DNA of 64,000 nucleotides from contig SUUL01000001.1 in NCBI GenBank assembly GCA_015062545.1, positions 96,375 through 160,374 of the forward strand. The letters run 5' to 3'. This DNA comes from Alphaproteobacteria bacterium. GTDB taxonomy: Bacteria > Pseudomonadota > Alphaproteobacteria > Rs-D84. The notes under the pieces were generated by a model. The model was not told the DNA's origin. It saw nothing but the letters and a program-made list of their open reading frames with translations, and did not search any database. Below, piece after piece: positions 16,133-60,521 of the stretch (positions are counted from its first letter, which is position 1; every line of letters begins with the position of its first letter). Both the position numbers and the translations under genes were made by a program.

Positions 16133-16345
16133 AACCCATGGGGCAACCATGGGCCGAGGACTTGAAACCTCTTCATACAACGTAGGTGTCGCGTGAAGAC
16201 ACTTGGAAAAATCTCCAACCTGATTCGGTTGGAGGGTGGCGATATATTTAAATAAGCCCGCTATTTTGTATGATAGTTTCAAGCCTCCAACCGCTTTTGT
16301 TTTCAAATGCGGTTTTCTTGTTTTAATACACAGGGGGCGTTGGGA
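16133..16345 (+). promoter_or_regulatory. structured 5' leader A, attenuator-like: hairpin CTCCAACC(16213-16220)..GGTTGGAG(16227-16234), second CTCCAACC(16285-16292) overlapping terminator hairpin AACCGC..GCGGTT(16289-16314) + U-tract, then SD/ATG
   Basis: The same architecture and about 75% sequence identity is found in leaders B and C on the minus strand; leader D has a covarying version. The alternative pairing GGTTGGAG:CTCCAACC(2) would prevent the terminator from forming. Confidence 0.5.
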
Positions 16346-17068
16346 ATGAAAAAGATTTTTGCAATATTTTTAGGTTTGTTTATATATACAAATTCGGCAT
16401 GGGCGTTATATGATATCGGAGATCTTACACCAAATCCGGGCGGGGGCCTTATAGAAGAACTACAATGTGTACCATTGGGCATGTGTCCGGGCGCAACAAG
16501 ATCAGTGGGCTGTAACGCAGGTTCTGATTATTGTAACAATTGCAGTGGATATTCGACATCTACATCAACCCCAAAGACGGGTGTTACAGCAACAACAAGT
16601 TATAAAAAAGCTGTAAATTGTATAGGTGTAGTTCAAAGCTGTGTATGTTCCCAAACCACCACATACGCATGCGCATCGGGATATTGCGGCACTTGTACCG
16701 ATGAAACAGATTTAAGCACATGTAATTGTAAGGCAATACCGGCAAATGGATATTGTTCTGCAGGTGAAATTAAGTGTAATACTGGGTATTATAACACAAA
16801 CCCACTGAACAATCCCCTTCTGATAACCAGTTGTACGGCATGCCCCGCAAATTCAGAATCGTGTACCAATCTGTTAAACGTTACATGTAAAAAGAATTAT
16901 TATGCGGTTTCGGGATCAGCAAATACCATTTGCAACGCATGTCCGGATAATACCGTTACCGCCAGTACGGGTGCGACATCTGTGGCACAATGTTATATTC
17001 CGGCAGGCACCACATTTTCAGACACGTCTGGTAACGGAAAATATGTCACAGATTGTTACAGCGATTAA
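16346..17068 (+). CDS. secreted cysteine-rich repeat protein (GCC2_GCC3 / ephrin-receptor-like Cys repeats)
   Basis: Signal peptide MKKIFAIFLGLFIYTNSAWA. 30+ Cys in repeats of the form C..CP.N..S....C..C..GYY... No TM segment. GGGGG SD upstream. Confidence 0.6.
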   Translation: MKKIFAIFLGLFIYTNSAWALYDIGDLTPNPGGGLIEELQCVPLGMCPGATRSVGCNAGSDYCNNCSGYSTSTSTPKTGVTATTSYKKAVNCIGVVQSCVCSQTTTYACASGYCGTCTDETDLSTCNCKAIPANGYCSAGEIKCNTGYYNTNPLNNPLLITSCTACPANSESCTNLLNVTCKKNYYAVSGSANTICNACPDNTVTASTGATSVAQCYIPAGTTFSDTSGNGKYVTDCYSD

Positions 17069-17107
17069 AATTAATTATTGCGATAAAATTGTATAAATTC
17101 CTATAAT

Positions 17108-17138
17108 CAGACCATGGCACGGTGGTCTGATTTTTTTT
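17108..17138 (+). terminator. intrinsic terminator (cagacca-tggcacgg-tggtctg + T8)
   Basis: 7-bp hairpin and T8 after the Cys-rich gene. It overlaps the annotated upstream start of the comEC ORF, which argues for the later comEC start. Confidence 0.65.
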
Positions 17139-17146
17139 GCAGGGAC

Positions 17147-19009
17147 ATGTTCGGATTTGCGCCTTTCTTGATCGCATTTGGGGCGGCATGCTATTTCATT
17201 ATGCCAGACGAACCATTCGTATTGTGGGCGTTGGGTGCCCTGTTAATTCCGTTGGTATTTATTCGGCGTATGCCAATACCCATGCGCGCAATTATATTAT
17301 TTATATTTGGATTTTCGTATGCATGCGGGTTTGCAAATATTATAGATACACCACAACTGACACACGATTTGCATAATCAGAAAATAACCGCAATCGTATC
17401 GGAAATTGACTATACACCCGATGCTGTACGCATTTATATGGATGTGCCGTCTGAACAAATTTACGCATCAGGTGATACGGCGCGCGTACGTATCAATCTG
17501 CCCCAAGATTCACAGTTACCAAATATCGGCGATACCATCAGCGCAAATGTCGGGCTGTTCCGCCCATCACCCGCAGCAGCCCCAGGAACTTTTAATTGGG
17601 CACGGTATGCGTACTTTAATAACCTGACCGCAACAGGATATGCAACAGATTTTCAAATCACAGATGTAAACAATCATAAAAACTGGCGCGATTTTATTCA
17701 TCGTCAGACAAATTCTTTCTTGGTGGACAGTTTGGTGTTGGGATATAAAAACGTAATTGATAAATCTGAATCAGAAATATGGACGGCGGTCGGTGTCGGA
17801 CATGTGTGGTCAATCAGTGGCTTTCACATGACATTGGTTGGTGGGTGGCTGTTTGCAATATTTTACATGATATTTCGCAGTATCCCATATATCACACGGC
17901 GTATCCCCGCCAAGATACCTGCACTGATATGTGCCTGGGTTGGACTGTTGGGGTATTTATTCCTGTCTGGGTGCGATGTGGCAACGTTGCGCGCATTTAT
18001 GATGACCACACTGATTTTTGCCGCGTTTATATTCGGGCGCAGCGCGCTGTCTATGCGTAATGTCGCGTTGGCATTCTGTTTGATTTTCTTGATTAATCCA
18101 CACTATGTTATGCAGGCAGGATTTCAACTGTCTTTTGCGGCGGTATACGGATTGATTTGGTTGTACAGTGTTGTAAAACCAAAAATGCCACGTAATAAAT
18201 TAATGAAAATCATTTATGTGGCAATTCTGACATCGCTGTGCGCAACAATATTTACAGCACCATTTGTCGCCGCACATTTCGGGCATTTCCCAGTATATGG
18301 ACTGATTGGAAACTTGGTTTTGTTGCCTGTGTTTTCTGTTGCGATTATGCCGTTGGTAATGATTGGAACAATTACCGCGTTGATAGGCTGGAATATGCCA
18401 CTGATTTTGGCAGATAAATGCTATGAAATCACATTGAATATCGCAGAACATATCGCCAACTGGCCCGCTGCAACAATCAGTGTGCCACATATCACAAACG
18501 CCAGCATGGTAATTTTTATAATCGGTTTTATATGCCTGATTTTATCACACCATAAAATTAATGTCATTGTATGGGGCGCGTGTATGACACTGGGAATACT
18601 TTCCGTAATACATACACCAAAGCCTGTTTTCTTGGTCACACCGGATAATGAGTTAATCGCAATCGTGGATGATAATGGAAAACTGCAATTTAACAAAGGA
18701 CGTTCGTCTAAACATTTCTGGGTGTTTAATACGTGGAAGGCAATAAATGGCGAACCACAAGATACACCAAATGTACGTATAAAACACGACCACGGGCTGT
18801 ACAGATATAAAAATATCGCATATATGCAAAAGTTTGTACCACTGATGAATAACCTGCCAAAACTGTGCAAAGATGATTCAATAGATTATATCGTTTCTTG
18901 GTGGAAAATTGATGCGCCAAATTGCGCACACAAAATCAAGCGTGGCGGTTTCGTTATGTATCAAAATGGATTTATACATCGCAGCGCAACAAACAGACTG
19001 TGGAATTAA
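17147..19009 (+). CDS. comEC: ComEC/Rec2-family competence membrane protein
   Basis: Multiple TM helices and the conserved competence-domain region (..VGHVWSISGFHMTLVGGWLF..). Start at 17147 chosen after the terminator (AGGGA SD). Confidence 0.7.
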   Translation: MFGFAPFLIAFGAACYFIMPDEPFVLWALGALLIPLVFIRRMPIPMRAIILFIFGFSYACGFANIIDTPQLTHDLHNQKITAIVSEIDYTPDAVRIYMDVPSEQIYASGDTARVRINLPQDSQLPNIGDTISANVGLFRPSPAAAPGTFNWARYAYFNNLTATGYATDFQITDVNNHKNWRDFIHRQTNSFLVDSLVLGYKNVIDKSESEIWTAVGVGHVWSISGFHMTLVGGWLFAIFYMIFRSIPYITRRIPAKIPALICAWVGLLGYLFLSGCDVATLRAFMMTTLIFAAFIFGRSALSMRNVALAFCLIFLINPHYVMQAGFQLSFAAVYGLIWLYSVVKPKMPRNKLMKIIYVAILTSLCATIFTAPFVAAHFGHFPVYGLIGNLVLLPVFSVAIMPLVMIGTITALIGWNMPLILADKCYEITLNIAEHIANWPAATISVPHITNASMVIFIIGFICLILSHHKINVIVWGACMTLGILSVIHTPKPVFLVTPDNELIAIVDDNGKLQFNKGRSSKHFWVFNTWKAINGEPQDTPNVRIKHDHGLYRYKNIAYMQKFVPLMNNLPKLCKDDSIDYIVSWWKIDAPNCAHKIKRGGFVMYQNGFIHRSATNRLWN

Positions 19010-59977: not shown

Positions 59978-60250
59978 ATGTCCGTAACAAAAGCAAAAAA
60001 GTCTGAATTGATTCAGGAATACAAAGTTTCTGAAAAAGACAATGGTGGTTCAGTTGAATCACAGGTTGCTGTGTTAACAGAACGCATTCGCAACTTGACA
60101 GAACATATGAAGGCAAATCACAAAGACAACCATTCAAAACGTGGGTTGTTGTTGATGGTAAATCGCCGTAAAAAATTGTTGGCCTATATCAAGAAACGTA
60201 ACCCAGAAGATTACGAAGCCTTGATTAAAAAGTTGGGTCTGCGTAAATAA
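59978..60250 (+). CDS. rpsO: 30S ribosomal protein S15
   Basis: 89 aa; ..ESQVAVLTERIRNLTEHMKANHKDNHSKRGLL.. is typical of S15. Confidence 0.9.
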   Translation: MSVTKAKKSELIQEYKVSEKDNGGSVESQVAVLTERIRNLTEHMKANHKDNHSKRGLLLMVNRRKKLLAYIKKRNPEDYEALIKKLGLRK

Positions 60251-60253
60251 AAA

Positions 60254-60277
60254 ATCCGGCGTTTGCCGGTTTTTTTG
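60254..60277 (+). terminator. intrinsic terminator (ccggcgtttgccgg + T7)
   Basis: Same hairpin family, right after rpsO. Confidence 0.7.
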
Positions 60278-60297
60278 TGACATTAGACATGTGACAT
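60277..60297 (+). repeat. three tandem 7-bp direct repeats GTGACAT-TAGACAT-GTGACAT overlapping a candidate promoter (TAGACA-17-TATAAA)
   Basis: Seen directly in the sequence. Possible operator just upstream of leader D. Confidence 0.4.
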
Positions 60298-60352
60298 GAC
60301 ACGGCATATAAAATCACTGGCATTTTTTATATTTAATCAGTATAATCGTTTT

Positions 60353-60521
60353 GACATTTGTTAGTGAAAGGGCATGAACACCCTAATTCAGCAAAAACAA
60401 ATGCCCGACCGTTGGTCGGGATGCTGCGTGCCGAAAGGGCGTGGGGTTTTGCTGAATTAGACTGTTCAACTCCCGACCACTTTTCAAATGTGGTCTTTTT
60501 TTTATTACAGGAGTTTTTTTC
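60353..60521 (+). promoter_or_regulatory. structured 5' leader D: 13-bp P1 (60384-60396 with 60447-60459) enclosing two hairpins, then a terminator; covarying analog of leaders A-C
   Basis: CCCGACC (60404-60410) - gttg - GGTCGGG (60414-60420). A second CCCGACC (60472-60478) overlaps the terminator GACCAC-ttttcaaatg-GTGGTC + T8 (60475-60503). The terminator loop TTTTCAAATG also occurs in leader A's terminator loop. A TATAAT at 60341-60346 and a TTGACA at 60351-60356 lie upstream. Confidence 0.5.

Follow-up and report, generated by a model that had tools for sequence, protein, structure and literature searches.

The 64,000-nucleotide window analyzed here (positions 96,375 to 160,374 of contig SUUL01000001.1, Alphaproteobacteria, lineage Rs-D84) contains four structured 5' leaders, A to D, each lying between a promoter and a gene. 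On comparative and folding evidence, we consider it likely that they form one family of leader RNAs acting as cis transcription attenuators for the next gene. The original prediction, made from the window's sequence, had proposed a lineage-specific family of cis-acting leaders, and this agrees with more than 120 homologs that we find, each between its own promoter and a downstream open reading frame (ORF). All four leaders were re-read where that prediction had placed them, strand included, and have the following extents and scores against a covariance model (CM) of the family.

16133..16326, plus strand: leader A RNA, CM match 111.9 bits
38636..38806, minus strand: leader B RNA, CM match 102.5 bits
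46022..46191, minus strand: leader C RNA, CM match 140.2 bits
60353..60504, plus strand: leader D RNA, CM match 43.9 bits, E = 2e-10, aligned full length

These are the only copies that the CM finds in the window; its next sense-strand matches score below 15 bits. The leaders have in common a motif X' with a partner on either side, X1 upstream and X2 downstream. The order X1-X'-X2 claimed for A, B, and C is borne out by a composite pattern, CTCCAAC-N2-9-GTTGGAG-N40-70-CTCCAACC, that matches exactly these three places, against 0 expected and 0 of 100 shuffles. The motif pair CTCCAACC/GGTTGGAG has 8 sites per 64 kb against 0.83 expected, and all 8 are within A, B, and C. These 8 sites uphold the claim of a shared X, except that the X1 of leader C, CTCCAAC(A), is one base shorter. 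Leader D has CCCGACC / GGTCGGG / CCCGACC in the same order, as predicted; this is not rare in the window as a bare 7-mer, and three of its sites are in D. Two details of the original prediction change: pairwise identity among A, B, and C measures 65-72% instead of about 75%, and the central block AATAAGCCCGCTATT said to be common to all three is present in A and C and missing from B.

A scan of species-representative genomes with the A-C pattern gives at least 119 stretches. The CM, which had been suggested as a check, was built from 56 diverse copies of this type (type I) with D excluded, and it finds A to D in the window and about 125 copies within fetched genome loci, among the matches listed, for a family total of at least 120. 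Because a model built without D matches D over its full length at the score given above, D is a true though divergent family member, a minimal one without the helices P3 and P6 described below. A structure-aware model is needed to see this, since an nhmmer profile of type-I copies picks up A, B, and C and does not pick up D. The CM has 0 matches in 552 kb of unrelated metagenome loci that carry a chance CCCGACC triple, and a metagenome scan for the D-type triple itself returns at least 120 matches, all of them G+C-rich chance occurrences or other repeats. Among the pattern matches, four are due to chance in coding or G+C-rich DNA (L006, L023, L102, and L115), and in L062 the CM finds no copy.

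Genomes of Rs-D84 are mostly under 1 Mb with strongly reduced metabolism, and the lineage includes Candidatus Enterousia, uncultured gut bacteria. Among the matches listed, the source metagenome-assembled genomes (MAGs) nearly all bear the label Candidatus Enterousia, uncultured gut Alphaproteobacteria, or Rickettsiales, and a MAG contributes several loci. Second copies in the 8-kb flanks occur at about 1 per 80 kb, which would put a genome at roughly a dozen copies; at four per 64 kb, the window has a higher density. A scan of viral contigs has 4 pattern matches of which 2 are true copies (L125 and L126), so the family is not primarily phage-borne. A literature search on the motif strings and on noncoding RNAs of Rs-D84 found nothing relevant.

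One of the viral-contig copies, at 12038-12204 on the plus strand of L125 (a 33-kb IMG/VR contig classed as viral), is a type-I leader scoring 131.5 bits. It adjoins genes for lysozyme-like, PLD-like nuclease, and EcoRI-type methylase proteins, and precedes a 316-aa secreted protein that is also encoded behind leaders in L058, L063, and L113. For the 58-aa protein behind D there are two homologs; the contig of one ends 31 nt upstream of the gene, and the leader in the contig of the other, 96% identical to D, is barely informative. The same MAGs also carry a "type II" leader of about 200-260 nt that shares the logic of the helices P0, HL, P1, and P2 and has an extra internal domain. Its X allele is (CA)CCCCGAC / GUCGGGG(UG) / CACCCCGACC, followed by terminator, Shine-Dalgarno (SD) sequence, and ATG; a GACC-type X is common to leader D and type II. 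The type II leaders are:

L013:1763-2065, plus strand
L030:6927-7215, plus strand
L105:1650-1893, plus strand
L065:5560-5260, minus strand
L057:900-640, minus strand

Helices of the two folds

The leaders are drawn here in two folds. In the T-fold, the long-range helix P1 leads through an internal loop to a second long-range helix, P2. This one closes a junction that contains P3, P4 (the hairpin X1:X'), and P5, and the 3' part consists of X2 and the terminator. The A-fold consists of HL, P6, and X':X2. The parts are located as follows.

16135-16153, plus strand: leader A, P0 hairpin
16156-59/16168-71, plus strand: leader A, HL stem
16161-68 with 16276-83, plus strand: leader A, P1
16173-80 with 16266-73, plus strand: leader A, P2
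about 16183-16205, plus strand: leader A, P3
16213-20, 16227-34, and 16285-92, plus strand: leader A, X1, X', and X2
about 16236-60, plus strand: leader A, P5
16261-64/16273-76, plus strand: leader A, P6
16289-94/16309-14, plus strand: leader A, terminator, then U-tract
38739-38732, 38727-38720, and 38665-38658, minus strand: leader B, X1, X', and X2
38661-38642, minus strand: leader B, terminator, then U-tract
46127-46121 (CTCCAAC), 46117-46110, and 46059-46052, minus strand: leader C, X1, X', and X2
about 46055-46027, minus strand: leader C, terminator, then U-tract
60404-10, 60414-20, and 60472-78, plus strand: leader D, X1, X', and X2
60475-80/60490-95, plus strand: leader D, terminator, with U-tract 60496-60503
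leader D, plus strand: HL AGGG/CCCU, P1 AUGAACA/UGUUCA, P2 AAUUCAGCAAAA/UUUUGCUGAAUU

The nested structure of the T-fold comes out the same from minimum free energy (MFE) folds of A to D and from RNAalifold on the 56 copies, where 21 of its 31 pairs have compensatory changes. Its covariation is very strong. Every one of the 7 pairs of P1 has compensatory changes, with 97.7% of cells paired, exemplified by columns 12:160 (AU 22, CG 21, GC 6, UA 5). P2 is hypervariable in sequence, yet its strands form 7.8 bp within a copy compared with 4.5 ± 1.2 bp for mismatched-strand controls. Covariation is also seen in P3, P5, and the terminator. Sliding the partners as a control drops the paired fraction from 93.5% to 35-51%, and an unbiased mutual-information scan recovers the T-fold helices. 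A pairing of the 5' GGGG with CCUC of X2, which appears in the RNAfold MFE structure, was rejected: it has no compensation, 13-17 of the 56 copies leave it unpaired, and the GGGG pairs locally in HL.

For the A-fold, HL (GGGG...CCCN) holds the 5' strand of P1 in its loop and varies at pairs 6:19 (GC 37, AU 11, GU 6) and 5:20 (GC 18, GU 7, CG 5, UA 4, UG 3). P6 has the 3' strand of P2 as its loop and a stem of CUAU/AUAG or CAAU/AUUG, with pair 136:153 exchanging UA (34) for AU (20) and other types in single copies. X':X2 has a ninth pair, 97:163, that lies outside the collection pattern, and it is GC in 46, UA in 9, and UG in 1 of the 56 copies and never unpaired; in leader C this extension is U:A. 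The equivalent extension of X1:X', 73:97, is paired in only 34 of 56. P2 crosses X':X2 and shares a strand with P6, hence the A-fold set is incompatible with P2 plus X1:X'. On the evidence of covariation, the comparison demonstrates that the helices of both folds exist. A further covarying couple, columns 9:134, joins the first nucleotide of the HL loop to the purine between P5 and P6 (UA 23, CG 22, AG 7; about 16160 and about 16260 in leader A), and it holds across all marker backgrounds. It may be a tertiary pair at the HL/P1/P6 junction.

The evidence for coupling within X rests on copies found by means other than the X pattern. Five alleles shift X1, X', and X2 together: CUCCAACC, CUCCUGA(CC), CCUCCUGC, CCCGACC, and CCCCGAC. 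The last four are seen in:

L040 2551-2758: CUCCUGA / UCAGGAG / CUCCUGA
L029 6037-6202: CCUUCUGC / GCAGGAGG / CCUCCUGC
window leader D: CCCGACC / GGUCGGG / CCCGACC
type II relative: (CA)CCCCGAC / GUCGGGG / CCCCGAC

X':X2 is perfect in all alleles, and X1:X' is equal or slightly weaker because of a G.U pair, bulge, or X1 mismatch. Likewise, the otherwise standard copies L073, L009, and L083 have their X deviations also in X1. Sequence comparison thus establishes a three-way coupling of X1, X', and X2, and the five alleles and the extra covarying pair 97:163 both support the original prediction's reading that X' can pair with either X1 or X2. Since X' must pair with two partners, X would be frozen within a lineage while other helices drift.

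These folds suggest the following mechanism. In the T-fold, X2 would be free and its 3' AACC would join the terminator stem, so that transcription stops. In the A-fold, HL and P6 would each hold one strand of P1 or P2, and X':X2 would form 9 bp enclosing P5 and P6; the terminator would thereby lose AACC, 4 of its 6-7 pairs, and RNA polymerase would read on into the gene. Folding of the leaders in both conformations, which had been recommended as a check, gives this outcome, with AACC leaving the terminator stem when X':X2 forms. The claim that X' pairs with either copy of X is supported by the comparison, although the two-hairpin picture drawn with it omits the dominant architecture, the P1/P2 junction and HL/P6.

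Promoters, terminators, and downstream genes

Fixed placement is the other evidence for a role in cis. The family layout is a sigma-70-type promoter, the P0 hairpin, the structured domain, an intrinsic terminator, and SD and start codon 15-30 nt past the terminator, with leader lengths of about 150-190 nt. In the window, the promoters and genes are:

16098..16126, plus strand: leader A promoter TTGCCA-17-TATGAT, sigma-70-like, 10/12
38813..38842, minus strand: leader B promoter TTGCAA-18-TATAAT, sigma-70-like, 10/12, back-to-back with the tRNA-Val promoter
46198..46226, minus strand: leader C promoter TTGCAA-17-TATAAT, sigma-70-like, 10/12
60317..60346, plus strand: leader D promoter CTGGCA-18-TATAAT, sigma-70-like, 10/12
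16346..17068, plus strand: gene after A, Cys-rich protein with signal peptide, Ephrin_rec_like repeat, E = 1.7e-5
38437..38613, minus strand: gene after B, 58-aa protein, helix-turn-helix (HTH)-like by eye, without Pfam match
45786..46007, minus strand: gene after C, 73-aa basic protein with GRPTR motif, no known family
60522..60698, plus strand: gene after D, 58-aa basic protein with GRPTR motif, no known family

The sigma-70-like promoter expected upstream of every leader is there, each with a 10/12 consensus match, and so is a hairpin with U-tract shortly before SD and ATG, which RNAfold forms in 4 of 4 leaders. A simple terminator scanner with a loop limit of 8 nt reports that of B only, the loops of A, C, and D being too long for it. 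Over the family, 67 of 116 copies have the -10 element 70-79 nt upstream of X1, and its sequence is TATAAT in 49 and TAAAAT in 17 of the 116; from this distance, transcripts would start at P0. The start codon is on the same strand, with SD, at a median of 50 nt past X2; for 85 of 105 copies the distance is 30-60 nt, which leaves no room for a separate downstream promoter.

A few arrangements around the leaders may be recorded here. Directly upstream of the leader A promoter, at 15995-16067, is a tandem repeat of period 34 nt and 2.1 copies (CACACGGGGGCAGGGATAAAAGCATATTCCACAA). Leaders B and C diverge from tRNA-Val(GAC) and tRNA-Thr(CGU) (38813-38864; 46198-46286), and the promoter-like sites of leader B and tRNA-Val share a palindromic -35 hexamer, TTGCAA (38837-38842). 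Read in antisense, 16213-16234 and 60404-60420 give the X1:X' hairpin and then a run of T complementary to the A-rich linker. The scanner calls this combination terminator-like, and it could stop antisense transcription.

Of the genes named in the original prediction, the secreted eukaryote-like Cys-rich protein is recognized in the product of the gene after A by its Ephrin_rec_like match. The supposed 59-aa XRE HTH protein after B has 58 aa and no Pfam match at E <= 1, and the two GRPTR proteins, taken for paralogs, give no BLASTP alignment to each other. Relatives of 60-65 aa of the B protein are found behind similar leaders in L007, L026, L066, and L076, and a relative of the C protein behind a C-like leader in L010. 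Across the family, 54 of 92 downstream proteins look like signal-peptide proteins. Pfam assigns at least 15 of the 92 to HTH_31/HTH_19/HTH_3, 8 to Flg_new (Listeria-Bacteroides repeats), and 3 to Ephrin_rec_like, most of the rest having no Pfam family, and PHROGs recognizes several phage-type repressors and a few tail-fiber-like proteins. The effector/regulator regulon proposed earlier has to be amended to a set consisting mainly of signal-peptide proteins, together with many small HTH proteins.

Comparison with known RNA families

The leaders had not been recognized as a known RNA family, and Rfam agrees: over the whole window in gathering mode it reports 4 tRNAs and nothing else at gathering score, and the leaders have only a distant likeness to sRNA-Xcc1 (RF02221). 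That model scores 33.5 bits against leader A and 37.0 bits against L044, short of its gathering score of 53, with E values of 2e-4 to 3e-5 that come from small searches; E-value mode on the full 64 kb misses the match through its speed filters, and small-region searches show it. Weak matches to STnc430 and Thr_leader in the window are due to a hairpin, CCGGCAWWTGCCGG, found at gene ends with A- and T-run flanks in 12 window copies against 0.09 expected (for example, 25673-25686, 30642-30655, 32679-32692, 34747-34760, 38384-38397, 60256-60269, and 60704-60717). It is a stereotyped terminator sequence and probably a bidirectional one.

Among Rfam families, full-length alignment to the leader core is seen with sRNA-Xcc1 alone. 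Its model positions 1-87 align to X'-P5-P6-X2, the outer stem corresponding to X':X2 and the hairpins to P5 and P6. In both, an outer G-rich/C-rich stem surrounds two hairpins, the first of these is rich in AAUA, and UUU..A precedes the 3' strand. It has been described as a small RNA (sRNA) of Xanthomonas borne on integrons, transposons, and plasmids, mapped as an RNA of about 88 nt (88-100 nt on Northern blots), and so far treated as trans-acting without validated targets. It occurs upstream of symE in integron cassettes of Xanthomonas, upstream of an ORF6N gene in APSE phages, and in five tandem copies about 385 nt apart in a Xylella island. Like our leaders, then, these elements are directly upstream of co-oriented small genes (symE, ORF6N, and a Bro-N-like ORF). 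They differ in that they begin at X', lacking the upstream X1, HL, 5' strands of P1/P2, and P3, whereas our leaders have P0, HL, P3, and X1 in the roughly 95 nt between promoter and X'. The hosts differ as well, Gamma- and Betaproteobacteria plus mobile elements for sRNA-Xcc1 and Rs-D84 chromosomes for the leaders. Two IMG/VR contigs have Xcc1-like elements (L188:10873-10949 and L192:1291-1366, both plus strand) that start at X' right after a promoter-like sequence, without X1, and are followed after X2 by a hairpin without U-tract. Within about 40 nt comes a Bro-N-like ORF in L188 and, in L192, an ORF of 76 aa that HNH and terminase genes follow. Such positions suggest that many sRNA-Xcc1 elements are 5' leaders. 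By alignment, the Enterousia leaders resemble a core of the Xcc1 type that has gained an anti-antiterminator domain on its upstream side and an intrinsic terminator.

Among riboswitches, the SAM-I/S-box platform is a four-way junction with terminator, antiterminator, and anti-antiterminator. As in our leaders, the junction is closed by a long-range helix that sequesters a strand of an antiterminator overlapping the 5' arm of the terminator, and there are covarying helices and conserved junction nucleotides. Unlike SAM-I/S-box, the leaders have an exact duplicate partner for X' (X1 = X2), have one strand of both long-range helices pre-trapped in the loops of HL and P6, have no metabolic gene association, and match no Rfam riboswitch model. 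Of the features generally looked for in a riboswitch, they have a covarying structured domain and a mutually exclusive terminator and antiterminator, and no shared pathway or transport theme among the 92 downstream proteins. The trp-type attenuators (1:2, 2:3, 3:4) also have three exclusive pairings ending in a terminator before the first gene. The leaders differ from them in having no conserved leader peptide or regulatory codons, so a trp-style choice by a translating ribosome is not possible. T-box, RAT, and ANTAR models have no Rfam E-value-mode match on leader A or L044, and in the same searches PyrR reaches 18.9 bits against a gathering score of 54.

The c4 RNA of phages P1/P7, with the arrangement a1/b1-a'/b'-a2/b2, is likewise a structured leader RNA of a phage regulatory operon with complementary repeat sites and covarying alleles. 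It differs in being a processed antisense RNA that acts on a ribosome-binding site, with Rho-dependent polarity and no intrinsic terminator. C4 antisense RNA has a role in ant control in the immI region of P1/P7, and C4, isrK, and Xcc1 elements are found side by side in a Xylella prophage. By sequence or model, the only c4-type similarity of the leaders is to isrK at 13.8 bits, which is not significant.

The leaders are an undescribed family, a terminator/antiterminator leader with a double hairpin-trap design and one distant Rfam relative. That they are a new riboswitch or riboregulator class which, with a dozen or more copies in a genome of under 1 Mb, globally gates the surface and secreted proteome of Rs-D84/Enterousia, along with HTH regulators, on a host or community signal is a speculation we put forward tentatively. 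If such a class is real, the sRNA-Xcc1 of phages and integrons would be a stripped-down cis-acting core and not a trans-acting sRNA, and the leaders in any case offer a mechanistic hypothesis for RF02221, which is common in phages, integron cassettes, and pathogen plasmids. Characterized regulation in Candidatus Enterousia is almost nil, and a switch every 16-80 kb or so, fronting signal-peptide, tail-fiber-like, or adhesin-like proteins and small HTH regulators, would probably be one of its main regulatory circuits. As an orphan attenuator, the family also supplies an alignment that is large and rich in covariation.

Energetics, trigger, and rival explanations

Over 118 copies, the best X':X2 structure at full length is 12.0 ± 5.0 kcal/mol less stable than the best X1:X' structure, and in a transcript ending at X2 it is less stable by 10.2 ± 5.0 kcal/mol. 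If P1 and P2 are kept from forming, the two come out isoenergetic at the decision point (-1.5 ± 2.5 kcal/mol), X':X2 being the better one in 85 of the 118. Window leaders A to D behave the same way. In these calculations, P1/P2 and HL/P6, rather than X alone, set the energetics. Going by the differences between the folds, the default state would be termination, the decision step would be whether P1/P2 form or have their strands trapped in HL and P6, and read-through would need an effector that shifts the balance, whether small molecule, RNA-binding protein, or some physical or kinetic influence. A design with both long-range helices pre-trapped in local hairpin loops is unusual.

Several points weigh against attenuation as we propose it. 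We infer termination, read-through, and switching for all leaders from sequence and folding models. The T-fold may, by these models, be so stable that the A-fold never forms without a strong effector, and HL and P6 could be transient folding intermediates only. The composition of the states is uncertain, as HL and P1 could coexist in an H-type pseudoknot, and the covariation 9:134 fits neither fold as drawn. Since the collection pattern fixed X, the main alignment could show no variation in its X columns. In the variant at L029 6037-6202, X2 and the terminator overlap by only about 1 nt. Finally, no enzymes or transporters of a shared pathway are found among the 92 downstream proteins, which leaves no hint of a ligand. 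This speaks against a riboswitch for an ordinary metabolite, but a signal that is physical, protein-dependent, or a second messenger is not affected by it.

As to what would trigger an attenuator, ligand and protein have about equal weight with us, and a kinetic or constitutive role or a primary sRNA function has less. A small molecule bound in the P2/P3/P4/P5 junction, stabilizing the T-fold (genes off) or else the A-fold, is a possibility we entertain with reserve. It would suit the large structured domain with its conserved unpaired P5 loop GAAUAUAUUGAAUAAG, junction CRCUAU, and A-rich linker, the tertiary-like long-range covariation 9:134, the classical terminator/antiterminator platform, and the many copies per genome, as seen with second-messenger riboswitches. 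What it does not explain is that the genes encode secreted proteins and HTH regulators and no pathway enzymes or transporters, that P3 is dispensable, being absent from D and several copies, and that the internal domain differs greatly among type I, D, and type II, which is unusual for one ligand pocket. An RNA-binding protein that reads a single-stranded or loop element, an antiterminator or anti-antiterminator in the manner of BglG/SacY-RAT, ANTAR, PyrR, or N-nut, is entertained with the same reserve. The P5 loop and CRCUAU/AUAG are conserved beyond the needs of pairing, the regulon-like set holds many regulators, one factor for a dozen or more leaders would be economical in tiny host genomes, and the related sRNA-Xcc1 elements precede phage regulatory genes. 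Against this, no candidate protein is identified, and no protein-binding RNA model matches, as the PyrR, RAT, and ANTAR searches above indicate.

The strong promoters, the 5' hairpin, the terminator with U-tail, and the very stable T-fold are also what one would expect if the product were the short terminated RNA, the leaders being sibling trans-acting sRNAs and the downstream genes receiving incidental read-through, and sRNA-Xcc1, the closest Rfam family, is described as an sRNA. We consider this unlikely, seeing that genes with the close co-oriented starts described above have no other promoter, an element that is purely an sRNA would have no use for the duplication X1 = X2 or for the overlap of X2 with the terminator, the stable fold keeps the conserved motifs paired, and outside the leaders the 64-kb window has no GGTTGGAG/CTCCAACC target site. 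A leader may also act as an sRNA in a dual function. Quite unlikely, in our judgment, is a constitutive, unregulated attenuator or insulator in which HL, P6, and X':X2 are co-transcriptional intermediates guiding the T-fold. The T-fold is indeed 10-12 kcal/mol more stable in nearly all copies, and covariation proves helix formation, not regulation; yet X':X2 is kept perfect and one covarying pair longer than X1:X', X2 is so placed that X':X2 destroys the terminator, and a near-isoenergetic decision point is hard to explain without a switch.

Mobile or repetitive DNA, such as miniature inverted-repeat transposable elements (MITE) or repetitive extragenic palindromes (REP), and a trp-type leader-peptide attenuator are together highly improbable. 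Many dispersed copies with inverted repeats could point to the former, but compensatory changes keep the RNA helices while the sequence is hypervariable, position and orientation between promoter and ORF are fixed, there are no terminal repeats, and no repeat-class model matches. The refutations named in the original prediction have thus not come about, there being no MITE or REP match and the alternative pairings being kept in related loci through compensatory changes. For a leader peptide one can cite the GGAGG within X', followed in some copies by GUG or AUG. After X', however, no start codon or frame is conserved, many copies reading GCGAAU or GCCGAAU, loop insertions shift the frame, and the helices are hypervariable. 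In leader B, an ATG just past X' is in frame with the 58-aa gene and would extend it to a 101-aa ORF (38437-38742, minus strand); in the related leader L007 this ATG is not kept and the frame contains a stop, so the longer ORF is probably an accident.

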